A DNA stretch of 64,000 nucleotides from positions 1-64,000 of the forward strand of contig JAVZIQ010000003.1 in assembly GCA_038871175.1 (NCBI GenBank), written 5' to 3'. Below the pieces are notes generated by a model that did not search any database, was not told the origin of the DNA, and worked only from the letters and a program-made list of their open reading frames with translations. The position numbers were made by a program, and so were the translations under genes. The stretch comes from Candidatus Bathyarchaeia archaeon. GTDB lineage: Archaea; Thermoproteota; Bathyarchaeia; Bathyarchaeales; Bathycorpusculaceae. Of the stretch, positions 6,595 through 50,459 are shown in pieces (the stretch's first letter is position 1; each line of letters starts with the position of its first letter).

Positions 6595-6672
6595 GCGGCC
6601 GTAGTCTAGCCTGGGCTAGGACATCAGCCTGCCACGCTGACGACCCGGGTTCAAATCCCGGCGGCCGCACCA
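6595..6672 (+). tRNA. tRNA-Gly (GCC), CCA encoded
   Basis: Cloverleaf folded by hand: acceptor GCGGCCG/CGGCCGC, anticodon stem TCAGC/GCTGA with loop CTGCCAC, T arm CCGGG-TTCAAAT-CCCGG, discriminator A plus CCA. Confidence 0.9.
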
Positions 6673-6698
6673 TCGTTTGGACAAAACATCAGCACTTT

Positions 6699-7927
6699 TC
6701 ACTTACGCTTCCTAAACAGTTTTACGCCTTCAACTTCGCATACGTATTCAAACCCGGCTTCAATCAGCTCAGCAGCCTGCTCAACGGTTTTGGCAGCTTT
6801 GCAGACATAAGCGTCTTCAGCGTCGCCGTTTATCAACTGAGTGTAAACAAACGTGTTCTTAATGTTTCTATGGCCCAGCACCTGCATTACATGGAGTATG
6901 TCCTTGGTTTTATGATATTCCATTGTAGCCTTCCAGTGGCGCAAAGTGCGAAACGATATTTTCAGAAGCCTTGAGTTTCCAAGCTTATGGGCAATTCTTT
7001 TACGGTTTCTTTCAAAGGTGCAGCTTAGGCTTCTTAGGCTTCCATAATTGCTGAATATGTTTTCGCCCTTTTTTGGAAGGCTGTTAAGCATGCTGACGAG
7101 TTTGTTTGAGATTTTGAGGATTCTCGGGTTGCTTCCCTTTTCAGGGGTTATTCTCACGGTTTTTGCTTTTGTGTCGATGTCGATCCATTTCAAGTTGAAG
7201 ATTTCGCCCGCTCTGGCGCCGGTTTCCTTTGTAATTTGAAGGAATGTGCAATTTGTTTGTTGCATCCTGCGATGAGGTCGTCGATTTCTCTTTCAAGGGG
7301 AATGAACGGAAGTTTTCTTATGGCCTTGTATCTTGGTTTTTCCCATTTTAAGCCGGCCCATTTTGCAAAGAGGTCGTAGGCGTAAGCTGTTGTTTCTTTG
7401 CCTGAGTCACTCCATTTCTGTGCAGCTATGGCTTCCTTAACGCTTTCTGGGTCTAGCAGGTTTGCTCCAAGCTTTACAAGCCTTCTAAGCCTTGAACCTT
7501 TACCGCGTATTGTTGTGTCTTTGTATCCTTGCTTTTTCATCCACCAGAGGAATTCAAGGAGTTTTCCCTGAAGCTCAGTTTGGCCAGGCTTCACTGTTGC
7601 CCCCGCAGCCCGCTGTTCAGCGTGGGTTTTAACTTCGGTCAAGGCTTGCACCGCCCTCTGGGCGGAGGACGCTGCGCATGATGCCTCATAGCTTCCTTGA
7701 CAATTAGAAGTTAAGCCATCAGCGCAATTTAAAATCTGCCTATCAACTTTTGAGGCATGTTGAAACTTTTCTGAACAGTTGAGATTTTTCTCGGTGAAGC
7801 GGTAACCGCACGTTCTACATAACCAACGTTGAAGGCTTGAGCCGTCTGCCAAATAGCGTAAACCGTCTCTGTAAAGCGTTGTGCCTCCGCATATTGGACA
7901 GGCAAGTGTTTCGGGCTTGGATGCCAC
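6699..7927 (-). pseudogene. Tyrosine recombinase/integrase split by a single-base frameshift near 7246-7248
   Basis: ORF 7190-7927 has an N-terminal Zn ribbon (CPICG...CRTCG) and a core-binding region. ORF 6699-7265 has the catalytic domain (ETGARAGE, LRHWKAT, LGHRNIKNTFVYTQL). The frames switch inside ...LIAGCNKQIA|TFLQITKETG..., consistent with one missing A. Confidence 0.8.
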
Positions 7928-7931
7928 TTGT

Positions 7932-9725
7932 TTAGGCGTCTCCTGTCTGCTGTTTTTCCCATATTTCTTTACAGTCTTCGCATAGCCACAAGCTTTCGCC
8001 TTTGAATGGTTCAGCCTTCCAGCTTGTCAGCTTAGTGTAGCCGCAGACCTCGCATTTGTGCCAGCCGTAAAAGCCGTCGCTCCAGTGGACAGCCTTAAAA
8101 TTCCGCAATTTGTTGATTTTTTCGTTTTCAACTAATTTTGAAGCACTTTCTGTCAAAGAGGCTTTGTTTGTGGTTAAAGAAATATTTGCACACATGCCTG
8201 TTTCGCTCTGGAAGTGTTTAGCGTATAGATCCTCAACGGTGATTTCGCGTTCGCTGATAATGTTTTCTTTAAGCGAGAGGGTGTTGTGTGCAAATATTTT
8301 TTCAGCGCCTTTCAGCCACTCTTTTAGCGTTTCAATGGTGAAAATAGACGAAAACTGCGAATTCAACAAATTGCGGGATTTTTCACCATTATGAATCGCC
8401 TCGTAAAGTTGACGTCTTTTGTCTGCTGGGTCGGGCTTGCTTGTTAAATAGCCTATGCTGCAGAGAAAAGCGGCCCATCTTCTTACGGCGTCGCTTGACT
8501 TCTTTTCCTCTGCTCGACCTTTCCATTTCTCCGTCAACTCTTCAAGGGTGAACTCTTCTTTTTCTTTGGCCAGCGGCTCAACAGCCTCGTGGTAGAATCT
8601 GATTATGTGTCCTGGCGCAGAGGTTTCCGTTGTTTCCCGGATGTTTTGCCACAGCGCCATTACAAAGTCGTAGTCGCGCCGTGTCACCATTATGTAGCGT
8701 TCTTCAATTTCCTTGCATTGACTGGTTGAGGAGTCTTCCGCTGCCTTTTCTGGTTTGATTTTTCTTATTACCAGCGGTCTTTGGGCGAAGTGGAAAAGCG
8801 CGGAGACTTTGACGAGGTTTGTTAGGTGCTTGAAGTCGCGCATTGAGCGTGGCGAGCGGCTTGGGAAAGCCTCGGCGAATTTCATTGCGTATGGGTCCAC
8901 GGCTTTTATTTCGCTTAGGTGGTTTTTTAGAAAGCGTATGTAGCCTTCTAGGAGCATGTAGTCAAAGTCGTTTTGGAAAATCCATGGGTAAGCTGCCTTC
9001 TTGCCTGTTAGGATGTTTGCTGCCTGATACTTTTTCTGGGTCATTTCAGGGGTTATGGTGAAGCCTCTTGTGGCGAGGTCCTGCACGTATTTTTCCTGAG
9101 TGCTGCAGAATATCGTGGCAGGCCAGCCTTGGATTATGACATGTTGCGTTTGCAACTGATCTTTGCCCGACTTGTCCGTAAAGCGATAACTAATTTGGTA
9201 GGCGTCGTGGCTTAGGATTGACCTTAACATGTTGAAGGTTTCAAAGTGCGGCGCTTCTAAGAATACAAGTATTTTGCCGCTTAACTCGACTAGGTAACGA
9301 GTGTCTTTCAGCTTTTGAATCCAAGCTTCTTTCTCTTCTGGCGATGCGTCTTTGTCTGGCTTGTGGGATGGCAGTATTAGGTCTCCATTTTCGTCGATGA
9401 GAATGCCATGTTGATGGATTAACGCGGTTGGGCTTAGTCCACCGAGAAGCCAAACATCGTCTTTTGGAAAATATTTTAGGGCTTGCACTACATTGTAGCT
9501 TTTTCCTATGCTGCTTTCTCCCCGCAAAAACAGGTTTATGGGTTCAGGCGTGTAGGCGCTTAGGGCTGTTAGGAAAACCATGTTTTTTGTTATGATGTCC
9601 CTGCGCACGGTTCGGCTTAAATGCCTAAGGAATTTGCTGTAAAGCCTTGGATCTACGGCGAGCAGGTCTCCAGCCTTGAAGCCTCCGAGCGTTTTGAGTT
9701 CTGCAAGGTTGAAGAGGCTGCTCAT
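7932..9725 (-). CDS. P-loop NTPase with C-terminal zinc ribbon (putative replication/helicase-type protein of the integrated element)
   Basis: Walker A LRGESSIGKS, a hydrophobic strand plus acidic residue ILVFLEAP (Walker B-like), and C-terminal CEVCG...CEDC. The gene ends 5 nt before the integrase start. Confidence 0.55.
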   Translation of the reverse strand: MSSLFNLAELKTLGGFKAGDLLAVDPRLYSKFLRHLSRTVRRDIITKNMVFLTALSAYTPEPINLFLRGESSIGKSYNVVQALKYFPKDDVWLLGGLSPTALIHQHGILIDENGDLILPSHKPDKDASPEEKEAWIQKLKDTRYLVELSGKILVFLEAPHFETFNMLRSILSHDAYQISYRFTDKSGKDQLQTQHVIIQGWPATIFCSTQEKYVQDLATRGFTITPEMTQKKYQAANILTGKKAAYPWIFQNDFDYMLLEGYIRFLKNHLSEIKAVDPYAMKFAEAFPSRSPRSMRDFKHLTNLVKVSALFHFAQRPLVIRKIKPEKAAEDSSTSQCKEIEERYIMVTRRDYDFVMALWQNIRETTETSAPGHIIRFYHEAVEPLAKEKEEFTLEELTEKWKGRAEEKKSSDAVRRWAAFLCSIGYLTSKPDPADKRRQLYEAIHNGEKSRNLLNSQFSSIFTIETLKEWLKGAEKIFAHNTLSLKENIISEREITVEDLYAKHFQSETGMCANISLTTNKASLTESASKLVENEKINKLRNFKAVHWSDGFYGWHKCEVCGYTKLTSWKAEPFKGESLWLCEDCKEIWEKQQTGDA

Positions 9726-9755
9726 CGCTGCACGCTCGCCAGAAAAGCTTATGCT

Positions 9756-10082
9756 TTATTGGGTTTTGGCGGTTGTTTGGTTTCGTTTTTTGCGTCCGAC
9801 TGTGGCGCCGTTCTGGAAAACCCAGTAAAACCATCCTTCGCGAGTTAGGCGTCCTCCATGAGCCTGCAAATCCTTAAGCATGGCCTTAAAATCCGAATTG
9901 TCCAAGTCTTCGCTTCTTTGATAAGGTCCTGCTGAGCCTTCTGCCCGCTCCCATTTTATGGCTTCTGGGTCCCAGCCGATTTTGGTTTGTTTAATGAGTT
10001 GTCGTGCGCTTGCTATTCCGGCTTCAACAGCGTTCAAGAATTCTAAAAGCGCTATTGTGGCTGTGTCTTCTTTTTCTGTCAT
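9756..10082 (-). CDS. Hypothetical protein of the integrated element (108 aa)
   Basis: Its ATG overlaps (ATGA) the stop of the restored RHH gene upstream. No motif recognised. Confidence 0.5.
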   Translation of the reverse strand: MTEKEDTATIALLEFLNAVEAGIASARQLIKQTKIGWDPEAIKWERAEGSAGPYQRSEDLDNSDFKAMLKDLQAHGGRLTREGWFYWVFQNGATVGRKKRNQTTAKTQ

Positions 10083-10259
10083 GGCAGGTACGCCTCTTCC
10101 GTGGCGGGTTTTTCCTTGTGTTCGTAGTCTTCTAGGTGTTGGTCTAGGGCTTCGGCTATTTTGCGGTCTATAAGCTCTTTTATGGCTGTTTCTGATGATT
10201 TGTTTAGGTCTTTTAGGAGTTTAATTATTTTTTGGAGTTCTTCAGCGGACAGTATGCGC
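10079..10259 (-). pseudogene. C-terminal part of the IS-interrupted RHH-domain gene
   Basis: Minus-strand frame RILSAEELQKIIKLLKDLNKSSETAIKELIDRKIAEALDQHLEDYEHKEKPATEEAYLP*. It is in frame with ORF 12508-12738 once 10260-12514 is removed. Confidence 0.7.
10253..10259. repeat. Left copy of the 7-bp direct repeat TATGCGC (target-site duplication)
   Basis: Identical heptamer at 12508-12514. The two copies bracket the 2248-bp IS chimera. Confidence 0.65.
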
Positions 10260-10277
10260 GGGGCGATTAAATAATTG
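10260..10277. repeat. IS-B left terminal inverted repeat
   Basis: Exact reverse complement of 11506-11523. Confidence 0.9.
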
Positions 10278-10317
10278 TTTAATGCTTATTTGGGAGGGTC
10301 AGCCTTCCTCGTTTTGA

Positions 10318-11304
10318 TTGTTGATGGAGGCTGGCTCTCCTAAGCTGTTGTTCGATTTGGTGGATTTTAAGCCTATCCGTCATATCTTGTGGGTTGGCCT
10401 TCACGTGGATGGTGCTGGCAGGCCTGTGGTTTATGATCCTGAGTGGGATTTGAGGGCTTTGATGCTAAGGTTGCTTTTGCAGCTTAGATACGTTAAGGAT
10501 TTGGTTAGGCTTTTAAGGCGAAGCGCATATTTTAGAGAAGCCTGCGGCTATAGGGGTAGGGTGTCCAGTGAGGCTCATTTCAGCCAGATGAAGAAGCGCA
10601 TTGGCATGGATGGTTTTAAGGCTGTTGAGGGCTATCTTCGTGGAGAAGCTAATAGACTTAGGGCTAAATATCCTCTTTTGGCTTTAGGCTTGGTTCAGGC
10701 AGCATGCTTTGATGGTACAGACCTTAAAGCTTGGAGCAGCCGAAACCCGAAGGATAATACGCGGGGACTTGGAGATCCAGGGGCTAGGGTTGGAAGGGGC
10801 CCTGAAGGCTTCTATCTGGGCTATAGAAGCCTACCGTTGGGGCATGTTGAGGATTCGGCAAACGTCAACGAGAAAGATCTCGTAGAAAAGGTTTTAGAGG
10901 ATGCTTTAGGCGGCGACTTTGAGGTTGAGTTGGTTGTTGGAGACAGCCAACTAGAGTCTAAAAAGGTATTCCGAAAAGTGGAAAACAGGAAAATAGCCCA
11001 TGTAATTCCATGGAGAAAGCTGAAAGGAAGAACTAACCCTCCAGACGTGCTCACAGTTAAGGATAAAATAAGCGTTGAGGGACCTGAACACTTAAAGGTT
11101 ATATACGGCCGCTTGAGGGCTACTGCTGAAGGCTTTGTTTCCACGCTTAAAACCCAGATTGGCTACGACAACTATACATGGAAAGGCTTAGACAACGCTA
11201 CAATCCACACATGCCTAGCCTTCAGCCTAATCTACGCCGTGACAATAGCAGCAATAAAAATGGGAAAACCGGAAAAAGCAAGAAGCATAACATACTTCAA
11301 ATAG
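10318..11304 (+). CDS. DDE transposase of IS-B
   Basis: Motifs DGTDL, GARVGRG, ANVNEKD, VGDSQ and RATAEGFVSTLK (Y/R..E..K-type region of IS4/IS5 transposases). 328 aa. Confidence 0.8.
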   Translation: MLMEAGSPKLLFDLVDFKPIRHILWVGLHVDGAGRPVVYDPEWDLRALMLRLLLQLRYVKDLVRLLRRSAYFREACGYRGRVSSEAHFSQMKKRIGMDGFKAVEGYLRGEANRLRAKYPLLALGLVQAACFDGTDLKAWSSRNPKDNTRGLGDPGARVGRGPEGFYLGYRSLPLGHVEDSANVNEKDLVEKVLEDALGGDFEVELVVGDSQLESKKVFRKVENRKIAHVIPWRKLKGRTNPPDVLTVKDKISVEGPEHLKVIYGRLRATAEGFVSTLKTQIGYDNYTWKGLDNATIHTCLAFSLIYAVTIAAIKMGKPEKARSITYFK

Positions 11305-11505
11305 CAATAAACCAGGAAAAGGATAAGGCTTAAGCTGAAAATGCTAGCCTAAACCATAAAAGCCAACAGCATTCCAAGGCAAAATTCACACAAACCAGCC
11401 CTAAAAGCCCAATTCTAAACCACAAAACCTGCAGAAACCCACCCTTAAACACCCAATAAACCACTCAAAAACCAAAAATCGAAAACAATCAAACAACCCC
11501 AAAAG

Positions 11506-11523
11506 CAATTATTTAATCGCCCC
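11506..11523. repeat. IS-B right terminal inverted repeat
   Basis: Exact reverse complement of 10260-10277. It supplies the stop codon of the truncated IS-A transposase ORF. Confidence 0.9.
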
Positions 11524-12382
11524 GCTCTAGCTTTGAGGCTTTGAATGCCCTTTCAACAGGCATCCTACGCTTATAAAGCTCAACAAGCCTTTTTTCGCCC
11601 TTAACCCTGAAACGCTTAGTCACGTATAAGCGTATTAATGGCTCCTTAACCTTCGAAGAGTGGGGTATTACTGGTTCAGCTCCATAACTACTTATCGTCT
11701 TGAAGACTTCTTCTGAATAGTATTGGCTGTCTGCTATGAAGTGGCTAATGCCCTTTCCATAACGCTTCAGAAGCTTCGAAGCCCTATCCATTAATGGCCT
11801 AACCGCTACTTTGTCATTTACGTTAGCCGCTCGTACGATGTAGGTTATGGGCAAAGTCTTCATACATACAAGCGTGTGGCTTCTCCATCCAAGCTTGTAA
11901 CTTCGCCTATCAGCCCTGCCAACCCTAGCGCCCCTATCGCTTATTCCGCCCTTCCTACCACGCCTAGAATAAGTCTTCATAAAAGTGCTGTCAGTACTAA
12001 CCATAATTAAATCTGAAGCGTCTATTATGGCCATGTTGAAAGCTTGATTTAGAAAATCGTTGAAGAGCTTCTCAATGTTTTCAGGCCTAGCACGAGTAAT
12101 AAACTTGCTGAAAGTTGAATGGTCTGGAGTTCTATCACCAAACTCGCATATTTCACGGGCATACTGACGCCTCTCAAGCCTCCTGCAAAGCTTCCTAACC
12201 GAAGGAATGGCCTCAAAACGCATAAACATCAAAGCCAACAACATGGAACGCACACTAAAGCGAGGCCTACCACGACCGCTATCAGCGTACTCAGCCTCAA
12301 TAAGGCTTACAGTTACGCTTATATCGATATTGGAGAACAATAACTTGAGGGTGTCAAGGGGTAACCCGAGAAATCGGTTCAA
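11524..12382 (-). pseudogene. IS-A DDE transposase, C-terminally truncated by IS-B
   Basis: TTG start with SD GGAGGTGA. Motifs DSTF, GARVGRAD, ANVNDK, ADSQYY, RMPVERAFKASK. The native sequence stops at ...KASKLE, and the last codons plus stop (RGD*) come from the IS-B repeat. About 50 C-terminal residues are missing relative to IS-B. Confidence 0.8.
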
Positions 12383-12434
12383 ACCAGGTTATCACCTCCA
12401 TTTGGACTTGATTTAATTACCCCTTGACACCCTC
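12347..12434 (-). promoter_or_regulatory. Perfect 15-bp inverted repeat bracketing the SD and TTG start of the IS-A transposase
   Basis: GAGGGTGTCAAGGGG (12347-12361) and CCCCTTGACACCCTC (12420-12434), 58 nt apart. The SD (12392-12399) and the start codon (12380-12382) lie between the arms. Confidence 0.6.
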
Positions 12435-12507
12435 ACCCTATAAACCTTAACTAAACCAAAAACAAACTCTTTTAAAGAAAAAATCTGAAAAAAGATTTTT
12501 CAACACT

Positions 12508-12514
12508 TATGCGC
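12508..12514. repeat. Right copy of the 7-bp direct repeat TATGCGC
   Basis: Identical to 10253-10259. Confidence 0.65.
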
Positions 12515-12738
12515 ATGGTTAAACGGATATGTTCACGCTTCAAACCTTCATATTCGATATTAGAGGTGGGCTGAGGTTGTCCTTTAAGCTTTGCAAGCTC
12601 AGCTTTTAACAGCTCGTTAACAACTTCATTAAGGGTTTTGTTTTGCATTACCACGATAGGTTTAAGCTCGTCAATTATGTCGGCTTCCACCGCGAAGCTT
12701 CGAATGCGTAAAGGGTTATCATACTTACGTGAAGGCAT
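12508..12738 (-). pseudogene. N-terminal part (77 codons) of the IS-interrupted ribbon-helix-helix gene
   Basis: MPSRKYDNPLRIRSFAVEADIIDELKPIVVMQNKTLNEVVNELLKAELAKL has an RHH/CopG-like pattern (beta strand, then two helices). ORF 12472-12738 in the track continues into IS-A sequence after ...LTMRI. Confidence 0.7.
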
Positions 12739-12775
12739 GTTTTACTCTTCAATAGAAAAATATGTTGTTAGTTTG

Positions 12776-12832
12776 CCAACTGAATATGTATGTGAAATTG
12801 AAGGTGCCAAGCTTTTCCGCAAACGTAAATAA
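12776..12832 (+). pseudogene. Relic of a second integrase gene (last 18 codons only)
   Basis: PTEYVCEIEGAKLFRKRK* matches the C-terminus GFEYVCEVEGVKLFRKRK* of integrase 6699-7265, at roughly three-quarters nucleotide identity by eye. It lies convergent to tRNA-Ser, just as the full integrase lies relative to tRNA-Gly. Confidence 0.65.
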
Positions 12833-12870
12833 AATACACAGCGGGGGTTCATTAAAAACAATGTTGAAAG

Positions 12871-12969
12871 CGCCGGGGGTGGGATTTGAACCCACGCGGC
12901 CCAAAGGGCCACAGGCTTCCAAGCATATAGTCTCCAGGCCTGCTCCCTACCTGACTAGGAGACCCCGGC
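12871..12969 (-). tRNA. tRNA-Ser (GGA) with a 14-nt intron at or near position 37/38
   Basis: Acceptor GCCGGGG/CCCCGGC, long variable arm TGGCCCTTTGGGCCGC, T arm GTGGG-TTCAAAT-CCCAC. The anticodon stem CAGGC/GCCTG encloses 21 nt, which is a 7-nt loop CTGGAGA plus 14 extra nt. Confidence 0.8.
12918..12931 (-). other. tRNA-Ser(GGA) intron (ACTATATGCTTGGA in RNA sense)
   Basis: Inferred from the excess length between the two anticodon-stem halves. The exact boundaries are ambiguous by 1 nt, and I could fold only a relaxed BHB. Confidence 0.55.
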
Positions 12970-13716: not shown

Positions 13717-14791
13717 TTAGATCTCGCCGCTTCTCCAGCATTTGGGGTATGTGCCCCGAGGCATTAAAACCCTTCTCGTTTTAGCAACAACTCCATGTTC
13801 CATTTTTAGGATATCCTCTGTTGAGGATTGAGCTGTTGCCAGGGCTACAGCTTCCCCTTTAAGGGTGAAAAGGGCAACAGCTGAACCGGTTTTTATTCCA
13901 GTTTCAATTGATAAAACTCCTGGAGCGGTTAGGTTTGCCCCATGGCATATGGCGTCCACAGCTGAGTCTCTTATGTAAATTTTCGGTACTAGGGCTAAGG
14001 CCTTCTCCATTGGCTTGATGAAACTTTTAAGCTTCACGTCTTCTTTCTTCTCTTGCCATTCCATAAACATGTAAGCCACGTCATGGAGGGTTACAATGTT
14101 TTCATCTTCCACGAAGGGACCAGCTCTTGTTCTTCGAAGCTCCTGCATGTGAGCCCCGCATCCTAGAACTTCGCCTATGTGGTGGCAGAGCATGCGTATG
14201 TATGTTCCCCCTTCACATCCAACCCTGAAAAGCACACTTCGCCTTTCCATCTCTAAGAAATCCAAATAGTATATTTTCCTCGTCCTAAGATGACGTTTAA
14301 CAGAAGCCCTGAGGGGAGGCCTCTGATAAATAGTGTCCTCAAAAATTTTTAAGACTTCCCTAACTCTCTCTTCTTGGATGTCGCCGTGAAGCTTCATTAG
14401 GCAAACGTATTCTTTTCCGCTTAACAGCAGTGCCTGAACAATTTTTCTAGACTCTTCAAGAGTTATAGGCAGAACACCGGTCACGTTGGGATTTCTCCGG
14501 CGTTAAAGCCTCAAGAGTCCCTCCGTGACCTATGCTCTTAAGGTTTAATATGCGTTTAACCCATGCAGCCACTTCGTGGCTTGTTGGGCCTGCAGGCTTG
14601 TCAAGGTTTATGACGCCGTATTTGATGTGTTCAACTGCAGGCCGCTGTTCAGGGGGACACCCATATTTCGGGTCTGTTTCTCCTTCAGCCTTCACAATTA
14701 GCTTACGTTCAATTTCCCATGGAGCAGCACTTCTAGGCAAATATGTGGACACCTCTATGCAAAGGATAAAATGGCTTAAACCTAAAAACAT
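13717..14791 (-). CDS. cbf5: Cbf5 (H/ACA RNP pseudouridine synthase, TruB family), interrupted by a 19-nt BHB intron at 14493-14511
   Basis: Exon 1 ends ...GVINLDKPAGPTSHEVAAWVKRILNLKSIGHGGTL. Exon 2 reads DPNVTGVLPITLEESRKIV...PUA domain. Exon lengths are 280 + 776 nt = 352 codons after removing the 19 nt. The N-terminal start is uncertain (ATG 14791 or an internal GTG). Confidence 0.9.
14493..14511 (-). other. Bulge-helix-bulge intron in the cbf5 pre-mRNA
   Basis: RNA sense: GGGA-CUCU-[UGA]-GGC-UUUAAC-GCC-GGAG-[AAA]-UCCC, extended by an outer helix GGUCACG/CGUGACC. There are two 3-nt bulges on opposite strands, 4 bp apart. Cutting after the second nt of each bulge gives CUUG|AUCCC = L-D-P. 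Confidence 0.85.
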
Positions 14792-50139: not shown

Positions 50140-50459
50140 GAAGATACTAAAATTCTCAGTCGCGAAAAATTTTGTGATGCAAGCCAAAAGCATTGAAAAA
50201 ACAGGATAGCGCGGTTCCCTTATCACTATTAGCCTACTCGGCCTGATAGGGCTCACACCCAAATCTATTTCAATATTGAGAGAACAATAACTTGAAGGTG
50301 CCGAGCGATAGTCGCATAAATTTGTCTGAAAGGTTTATCACCTTCGTTCGGGCTTGATTCAACTATCCCTTGACACCCTCACCCTATAAACATAACAAGC
50401 AAAAATCTTTATTTCAAAGAAGAAGCCTAAAAAGAATTATTCCACATTTATGCGCCTAT
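50140..50459 (-). mobile_element. Degenerate relic of an IS-A-type element (outer end plus the first ~60 transposase codons)
   Basis: Collinear with 12200-12514, including CCCTTGACACCCTCACCCTATAAAC (identical 25-mer) and the terminal ...CA(C/T)TTATGCGC. The reading frame MRLSLGTFKLLFSQY*...RYPVFSMLLAC is broken. The inner boundary is approximate. Confidence 0.65.

Follow-up and report, generated by a model that had tools for sequence, protein, structure and literature searches.

A stretch of 64,000 nt from a Candidatus Bathyarchaeia archaeon (GenBank assembly GCA_038871175.1, contig JAVZIQ010000003.1, positions 1 to 64,000, hereafter the window) carries a tRNA-Gly(GCC) gene and a tRNA-Ser(GGA) gene facing each other across an interval (6673-12869), which probably consists of the fused remains of two integrated elements, here named E1 and E2, both from the same Bathyarchaeia family, together with two nested insertion sequences (IS). 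The locus is an ordinary graveyard of elements, a degraded remnant and not a working four-gene mini-element, and the window holds the remnants of proviruses, not a provirus; no virion genes were found in 6673-12869 by Pfam and PHROG profile searches. The opposite orientation of the tRNA-Gly (plus strand) and the tRNA-Ser (minus strand), reported in the initial annotation of this DNA, was confirmed with ARAGORN and Rfam, and its view that everything between them is mobile was upheld, the interval being composed of integrases, a gene cassette, two IS elements and a second integrase stub. The genome is a metagenome-assembled genome (MAG) of 1.72 Mb in 80 contigs; its contigs are denoted by C (the window contig being C3), and related loci and related genomes by L and G, respectively. 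The placement of the window in Bathyarchaeia agrees with the named homologues of its genes. The G+C content of E1 is 45.8%, versus 41.7 +/- 1.8% for the genome, and is equally high in only 0.7% of the genome windows of the same size.

The following history would account for the interval. E1 would have entered the tRNA-Gly(GCC) gene and would now be left with only its tRNA-proximal cassette for replication and integration; one insertion sequence, IS-A, would have split its first gene, another, IS-B, would later have replaced one end of IS-A, and all DNA distal to the E1 operon promoter, the distal arm and the far attachment site (attR) included, would have been lost. E2, in the tRNA-Ser(GGA) gene, would have been reduced to 16 integrase codons and a spacer at the tRNA, with the rest of its stub on contig C30, and at least one rearrangement with breakpoints inside both elements would have joined tRNA-Gly and tRNA-Ser.

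The first element and its broken integrase

E1 occupies 6673-12781 and amounts to 3,854 nt once the IS DNA is removed, as was estimated earlier (about 3.9 kb). Its part next to the tRNA-Gly contains the following features:

6595-6672, plus strand: tRNA-Gly(GCC) with encoded CCA (ARAGORN; Rfam 65 bits), the integration target of E1, on its attL side
6673-6698: spacer of 26 nt between the tRNA-Gly 3' end and the integrase stop codon, read from the sequence
6699-7927, minus strand: E1 tyrosine integrase pseudogene, composed of the overlapping open reading frames (ORFs) 7190-7927 and 6699-7265
7932-9725, minus strand: p597, predicted AAA+ ATPase; Walker A motif GESSIGKS, then winged-helix domains, with a Zn ribbon at the C-terminus
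9756-10082, minus strand: p108, the conserved partner of p597; a helix at the N-terminus, and a small domain of beta-beta-alpha-beta-beta-beta type

The spacings of the E1 genes (an ATGA overlap, 30 nt and 4 nt) are those given in the initial annotation. The proposed layout, in which the integrase adjoins the tRNA convergently and the tRNA 3' end serves as the attachment site, was also borne out. The integrase itself, described there as a single gene, turned out to be two overlapping ORFs that result from a 1-nt deletion near 7245 (ATTGC-ACATTC), as compared with the intact homologues on C71, L001, L003 and L006, each of which is encoded in a single frame. The protein begins with a Zn ribbon, which is followed by a core-binding and a catalytic domain; its N part matches a Zn-ribbon profile, and the ORF 6699-7265 matches PF00589 (3e-18), phrog_1 (4e-20) and XerA_Arch (1.5e-17). 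In addition to the broken frame, its box II reads FRTLRH, versus FHT(L/F)RH in all four homologues, so that the histidine of the HxxR box is replaced by arginine. The frameshifted N product of 245 aa recurs in a second assembly with one other residue changed.

The interrupted first gene and the insertion sequences

The upstream part of E1 is interrupted by IS DNA, which was given as 2.25 kb and measures 2,255-2,262 nt:

10079-10259, minus strand: 3' half (the p59 part) of the first ORF of E1, a 59-codon frame lacking a start
10258-11525, plus strand: IS-B, IS5/IS1182-like, with 23-nt terminal inverted repeats found by repeat search, its ends ambiguous by 2 nt
10318-11304, plus strand: IS-B transposase (DDE_Tnp_1 and DUF772 profiles)
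11526-12514, minus strand: IS-A remnant, its transposase (11513-12382) cut at the C-terminus
12472-12738, minus strand: 88-codon ORF by ORF reading, encoding an 88-aa fusion of a ribbon-helix-helix (RHH)-like part with IS sequence
12515-12738, minus strand: 5' half of the first ORF of E1, with an RHH-like beta-alpha-alpha pattern, at the position of the RHH gene in relatives

The removal of 10260-12514 fuses 12515-12738 in frame with 10079-10259 into one ORF of 134 codons, and the restored junction AACCATGCGCATACTGTCCGCTGAAG aligns with the uninterrupted AACCATG---ATCTTGTCCGCTGAAG of L006. One ORF thus spans the IS chimera, and therefore both flanks of the IS DNA belong to E1; the assignment of the 88-aa ORF to E2 or to a third element was rejected on the same ground. 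The segment 10079-10259, previously presented as an RHH gene, has no start codon upstream of ILSAEEL, the L006 homologue beginning with MILSAEEL, and is only the 3' half of the 134-codon ORF. The RHH label has no profile support either: the restored 134-aa product gave no match to the RHH profile, and a 63-aa homologue at the same position in L006 matches RHH_1 with E = 0.0026, below the gathering score. The 5' half (12515-12738) retrieved only itself among 5.8 billion proteins.

The two insertion sequences are joined to each other. IS-A is devoid of about 220 nt of its low-coordinate end, in place of which IS-B stands, the stop codon of the IS-A transposase comes from the IS-B repeat, and the DDE_Tnp_1 match of this transposase covers profile positions 8-171 of 200. 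The similarity of IS-A to an internally deleted copy on C33 ends at about 12514-12519, and that copy shows the other inverted repeat. The heptamer TATGCGC is found at both 10253-10259 and 12508-12514; the C33 copy suggests that these bases belong to the terminal repeat of IS-A. No target duplication was found around IS-B, whose two flanks do not match. The C33 copy (C33:684-1366) is a derivative of IS-A resembling a miniature inverted-repeat transposable element, with both inverted repeats kept, and a more distant IS-A-like end is found in the window at 50181-50455.

The second element at the tRNA-Ser gene

The boundary between the two elements and the remains of E2 comprise the following:

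12739-12781: E1/E2 junction of 43 nt, free of IS DNA, with a possible minimal promoter of the E1 operon (ATATTTTT)
12782-12832, plus strand: tail of the E2 integrase, the last 16 codons and the stop (EYVCEIEGAKLFRKRK*), found by tblastn with the end of the E1 integrase
12833-12869: E2 spacer, with an imperfect copy of the tRNA acceptor end (GCGGGGGT), as in relatives
12870-12897, minus strand: E2 attachment (att) core, the 3'-terminal 28 nt of tRNA-Ser
12871-12969, minus strand: tRNA-Ser(GGA) with an intron (Rfam 45 bits), missed by default ARAGORN

The second integrase tail, noticed in the initial annotation, is identical to the C-terminus of the E1 integrase in 14 of 16 residues (87.5% by tblastn), with mostly synonymous differences in the DNA. 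The 28-nt att core is repeated exactly at C30:2451-2478 (blastn and k-mer scan). This copy is preceded by the distal-arm motif of the family (GGTGGCGA..TCTCCCGCAAA.TCCCCTTTTTT), in its only occurrence in this genome, and by a capsid gene that has lost its first 46 codons, with 92% identity to the capsid of G041 and a Linocin_M18 match of 2e-36; it is followed by a cluster of major facilitator superfamily (MFS) transporter genes. In the sister genome (G001:C15), the MFS cluster of C30 stands directly against the tRNA-Ser and represents the empty site, while the similarity of G001 to the window ends 6 nt past the tRNA-Ser. Because of the att copy, the distal arm and the capsid remnant on C30 and the empty site in G001, E2 is recognized as a former head-tailed provirus with an HK97-type capsid in tRNA-Ser(GGA), which now exists as two stubs at separate places. 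The earlier suggestion of a second, mostly deleted element that used tRNA-Ser is thereby substantiated by an att repeat lying beside the genes that flank the tRNA-Ser of the sister.

Organization of the family in related loci

The same cassette, with the gene set RHH, p59, p108, p597-type protein and Zn-ribbon integrase, is found in more than 80 Bathyarchaeia loci, in each case at the tRNA-proximal end of the element. About 90 loci show the order (regulators), p108, p597, (0-3 genes), integrase, and then, within 36-100 nt of the integrase, a tRNA gene, which differs in identity among the loci. The relatives resemble E1 in having a short spacer, of 36-46 nt, from the integrase stop to the tRNA end. 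A whole-genome pattern search of G041 revealed an 18-nt copy of the tRNA-Arg 3' end 41 kb upstream of the tRNA-Arg that adjoins the integrase, and this att pair encloses capsid, decoration and portal genes that are 88-99% identical to those of L003; in L003-L005, as in G041, the cassette is contiguous with virion genes. The other element bounded on both sides, L084:3146-14067, is delimited by an exact 26-nt repeat, is 10.9 kb long, has host ribosomal-protein genes outside and contains no capsid gene; it is a non-viral island on the same backbone. It encodes a 5'-truncated p597, an integrase and ORFs that by eye resemble Mre11/SbcD and Rad50/SbcC, no profile search having been run on them.

The limits of the core were established by comparison. 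In L003 and L004 the integrase is followed by the spacer, a 17-nt core and then other DNA, whereas a full tRNA-Leu is present there in L005 and L001, and therefore the att core is fixed. At L003:12957-13756 and in L004, the tRNA-Leu 3' end is represented by its first 17 nt only, and other genes follow, as at an attP-type or tandem junction, and these contigs may represent a free viral genome or a tandem array. The distal-arm motif follows a partial tRNA copy in G041, L073, L084 and on C30. In some relatives the tRNA is co-directional with the integrase, and the core is the tRNA 5' end (L058). The spacer contains, about 20 nt inward, a stretch of 9-12 nt that imperfectly repeats the tRNA-end core (L001:10194-10250, L006:10963-11030, L097:10203-10260, with GGCCGGGGTGAG twice in L097, and 12833-12885 of the window); it may be an integrase half-site. 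Among 15 loci with a tRNA adjoining the integrase, 10 of which have at least 9.5 kb upstream of the tRNA, no further att copy of at least 13 nt was detected by a scan that also missed the L084 pair, found later through the distal-arm motif. The search for an empty site of the tRNA-Leu element of L001 retrieved only contigs that end at the tRNA.

From these comparisons, the family integrase would recombine the chromosome with a core of 17-28 nt that corresponds to the 3' end of a tRNA gene. Once integrated, the element would consist of the full tRNA, a short spacer, the integrase read toward the tRNA, p597, p108, small regulators and cargo, and would end at the far side with the conserved distal arm and the partial tRNA copy, a subfamily using the tRNA 5' end. 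The tRNA-end core of 17-28 nt, the half-site about 20 nt into the spacer and the distal-arm motif may in this way be used for the exact delimitation of such elements in MAGs.

The Zn-ribbon integrase family is represented in the genome under study by at least nine more copies or fragments, which mostly lie beside tRNA genes (C71:4760-6236, also C8, C5, C2, C26, C27, C52, C64 and C68), the C71 copy being intact and co-directional with a tRNA-Arg(GCG). In a relative, L029 (G018:C6), a sequence that resembles the distal-arm motif with 4 mismatches is found at about 1144, close to the left-flank gene's orthologue, and may point to a further element of this family there.

Extent of the first element

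E1 stops only 43 nt upstream of its first start codon. These 43 nt (12739-12781) contained neither a tRNA-Gly copy nor the distal-arm motif when scanned, and no copy of the tRNA-Gly 3' end was found in 6701-12832 at word lengths of 11, 13, 16 and 20 nt with 0, 1, 2 and 3 mismatches allowed, respectively, in agreement with the failure of the initial annotation to find a direct repeat as attR. Since the cassette lies at the tRNA-proximal end of larger elements in the relatives, E1 is read as such an end, with the distal part lost. The designation of E1 as a very compact four-gene integrated element was accordingly abandoned: its integrase is broken, attR and the distal arm are missing, and the elements of the relatives measure 10.9 and 41 kb. 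Because of the deletion in the integrase frame and the H-to-R change, the split first gene and the missing attR and distal-arm motif, E1 is predicted to be unable to excise or move.

The genome-wide scan for attR retrieved a single partial copy, C77:5143-5168, which was rejected as the far end of E1 because it adjoins an integrase of another type and shares an inverted CACCAGAACTAGA motif with a tRNA on C49. This 25-nt copy of the tRNA 3' end is located beside host PolB and PIN genes and the N-terminus of an integrase without Zn ribbon, and the same 3' end is common to tRNA-Gly(GCC), tRNA-Gly(CCC) and the C49 tRNA (C49:380-475). The C77 copy and the C49 tRNA probably constitute another integrated element, split over two contigs.

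The proteins p597 and p108

No profile match was found for p597 in Pfam (MCM included), PHROG and NCBIfam, a profile search of the PDB sequences gave nothing below E = 0.08, and no match was obtained in 50,697 deposited phage and virus records, with two distant matches only in the scans of viral contigs. More than 416 homologues were collected, all the named ones from Bathyarchaeia, which form over 400 clusters at 90% identity. The AlphaFold2 (AF2) model of p597 has a predicted local distance difference test score (pLDDT) of 79.7, with only about 60 helical residues ahead of the ATPase core. The top 24 hits of this model in Foldseek versus the PDB are MCM subunits (MCM2-7 and archaeal MCM, E from 3e-9 to 3e-5), with TM-scores of only 0.3-0.37 and with BchI, RavA and Orc1/Cdc6 matching too; in BFVD it matches ORF A460 of the fusellovirus SSVK1 (8e-13). 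On the strength of this model, p597 is predicted to be an AAA+ ATPase of MCM-like fold that also contains winged helices and, at its end, a Zn ribbon; it is presumably the replication helicase or initiator of the element. The protein p108, encoded directly upstream of p597 in about 50 of the about 90 loci, was modelled with a pLDDT of 76 (AF2), and its fold search gave no structural match with E below 0.3. The pair may now be annotated as a putative MCM-like replication module of the Bathyarchaeia integrated elements.

The p597 gene, found in 11 of 41 related genomes and not in the sister genome G001, differs from the copy in a third assembly (L129) by 19.3 synonymous and 19.7 non-synonymous substitutions, which corresponds to a ratio of non-synonymous to synonymous rates (dN/dS) of 0.27 with a significant synonymous excess (binomial p 1e-4). 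As L129 already had the IS junction, this ratio indicates constraint on the helicase after the IS insertion. With p597 and p108 intact and p597 under purifying selection, the E1 cassette may still be expressed.

These data bear on the possibility that the cassette is a domesticated, immobilised replication module, in which p597, with p108, is kept by the host, e.g., for defence against related viruses or for interfering with them. Such domestication, which would be compatible with the reading of E1 as a decayed element, is consistent with the integrity of both genes beside a broken integrase, with the selection seen since the split from L129 and with the TATA-like box kept in the 43 nt that precede the first ORF. 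However, the 2.25 kb of IS DNA in the first ORF probably blocks or alters the transcription of p108 and p597, the selection estimate is based on only 39 substitutions, a signal like that of purifying selection could also arise if the element recombined with its other copies, and the genes are missing from the sister genome. The host role appears unlikely.

The adjacency of the two tRNA genes

The initial annotation anticipated an empty site in which both tRNA genes are adjacent. Such a site is absent: the tRNA-Ser of the sister adjoins the MFS cluster, and the genes of the left and right flanks are on different contigs in all of the 11 relatives tested, one contig, G001:C34, ending exactly at the tRNA-Gly 3' end. 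The adjacency of tRNA-Gly and tRNA-Ser is, therefore, a derived state. Three single events between E1 and E2 were modelled, namely a homologous inversion, a deletion and an inversion mediated by IS, and were rejected, since none of them places the RHH promoter against the second integrase tail with the C30 genes kept. Convergent tRNA genes on both sides of element DNA need not mean insertion into one ancestral site, and the present locus is a synteny breakpoint made by elements.

The interval has counterparts beyond the MAG under study. In the second assembly, the longest recorded contig is 168,912 nt for identical p597, p108, the 88-aa RHH-IS fusion and both flank genes, and the same length is recorded for the one-residue variants of the frameshifted N part of the integrase and of the transposase at the IS junction; the 289-aa IS-A transposase of that assembly keeps the tail encoded by the junction. 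The third assembly, L129, has the same junction of IS-B and p59 at 98.2% identity. The agreement of the second and third assemblies means that the lineage has inherited the frameshift and the IS chimera as well as the linked flanks.

Weighing of the readings

Several points weigh against the interpretation of the interval as fused remains of two larger elements. No simple inversion or deletion that was modelled yields the observed junction; the agreement with the second assembly rests on proteins that share the same recorded length of the longest contig; the original size of E1 cannot be seen; and a unit of 4.4 kb, consisting of a 137-aa gene, RHH, p59, p108, p597 and integrase, is 99.4% identical in L001 and L047, with different left flanks, and could accordingly be mobile or exchangeable as a whole.

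An alternative proposal is that E1 is, or was until recently, an autonomous and complete mini-element (about 3.9-4.4 kb), i.e., a satellite or integrative plasmid consisting solely of regulators, p108, the helicase and the integrase, which lost its attR as E2 decayed beside it. Regulators, a replication protein and an integrase suffice for an integrative plasmid. The proposal also finds agreement in the many p597 contigs of only 2-5 kb and in the end of E1 just 43 nt upstream of the first start codon, besides the L001/L047 unit in its two left contexts. Nevertheless, the left boundary of that unit has neither a tRNA-Leu copy nor the distal-arm motif, none of the 15 scanned loci has a further att copy of at least 13 nt, att copies delimit just two elements at both ends, with lengths of 10.9 and 41 kb, none of about 4 kb having been found, and the cassette is contiguous with virion genes in L003-L005 and G041. 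Three of the short p597 contigs were examined for their gene content and proved to be fragments of variable composition, unlike a uniform small replicon, and their interpretation as circular plasmids was dropped. The probability of a complete mini-element is low. It is also rather improbable that the cassette of about 4 kb is an exchangeable or independently mobile satellite-like mini-replicon common to tailed viruses and non-viral islands of Bathyarchaeia, the immobilised copy of which is kept here by the host under purifying selection.

That the adjacency of tRNA-Gly with E1 to tRNA-Ser is an assembly chimera formed at an IS or at the repeated integrase tail, as could be supposed from IS-B having no target duplication and unlike flanks, from the separation of the host flanks in the 11 relatives and from the 80-contig state of the MAG, is extremely improbable, because a single interrupted ORF spans the IS chimera, a non-identical second assembly records 168,912 nt for the flank genes, p597, p108 and the proteins encoded by the junctions, and a third assembly has the same IS-B junction. 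The reading as the fused remains of two integrated elements is retained as the most probable one.

Comparison with described archaeal elements

Head-tailed proviruses of Bathyarchaeia have been published, namely BATPV1/2 (PMC11705971) and Kunpengvirus (PMC10848311), for the latter of which an MCM-like helicase was reported. Their HK97-type capsid, terminal tyrosine integrase and tRNA integration with direct repeats (PMC11705971, PMC10848311) are shared by the 41-kb element of G041 and by E2. In contrast to these proviruses, the window holds stubs only, and its p597 has no Pfam MCM match.

As in the non-suicidal integrases of the pNOB8 and bacterial types (PMC8371274), the integrase gene remains whole on integration and lies beside the reconstituted tRNA, the tRNA end being the core. 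The box II of the family integrase, HxxRH, is of the bacterial type, whereas that of pNOB8 is YxxR; the N-terminal four-Cys Zn ribbon and the conserved C-terminal tail (...EYVCE.EG.K.FRKRK) distinguish the family from other non-suicidal integrases. The suicidal integrases of the SSV type (PMC7253208, PMC8371274) are likewise archaeal, target tRNA genes and leave integrase fragments at tRNAs. However, integration of the SSV type splits the integrase gene, within which the att site is located, while in the present family the stop codon is 26-46 nt outside the tRNA and the genes are whole in the integrated copies; the tail at 12782-12832 is a deletion remnant and not an Int(C) half.

The cryptic integrated elements and proviruses of Thaumarchaeota (PMC6563490) are likewise small, are located at tRNA genes and are organized around an integrase and a replication helicase. 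In Thermococcus kodakarensis, a chromosomal inversion between TKV2 and TKV3 is cited in PMC8371274, and the present locus is similar in that related integrated elements of opposite orientation would have served as substrates of rearrangement; it differs in that the junction of the window is not obtained by simple homologous inversion as between TKV2 and TKV3, and in that the elements of the window are also broken by IS. In this respect the locus is ordinary, since archaeal genomes can be expected to contain decayed proviruses and IS at tRNA genes.

Additional observations

With the intron search of ARAGORN, the segment 12870-12969 of the window was named tRNA-Ile(TAT), while in the same run the orthologues of five relatives were named Ser(GGA). 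The relatives' orthologues of the tRNA-Ser receive the call Ser(GGA), with an intron, and the tRNA-Ile(TAT) call was misled by an ambiguous intron boundary. A cluster encoding a KaiC/RadA-like ATPase upstream of the L001 cassette (L001:2404-5666) recurs on the short contigs C65, C66 and C29 and is probably another multi-copy mobile element. Downstream of the interval, cbf5 (13717-14791 of the window) is represented by two ORFs, one of 255 aa and one of 111 aa, that overlap.

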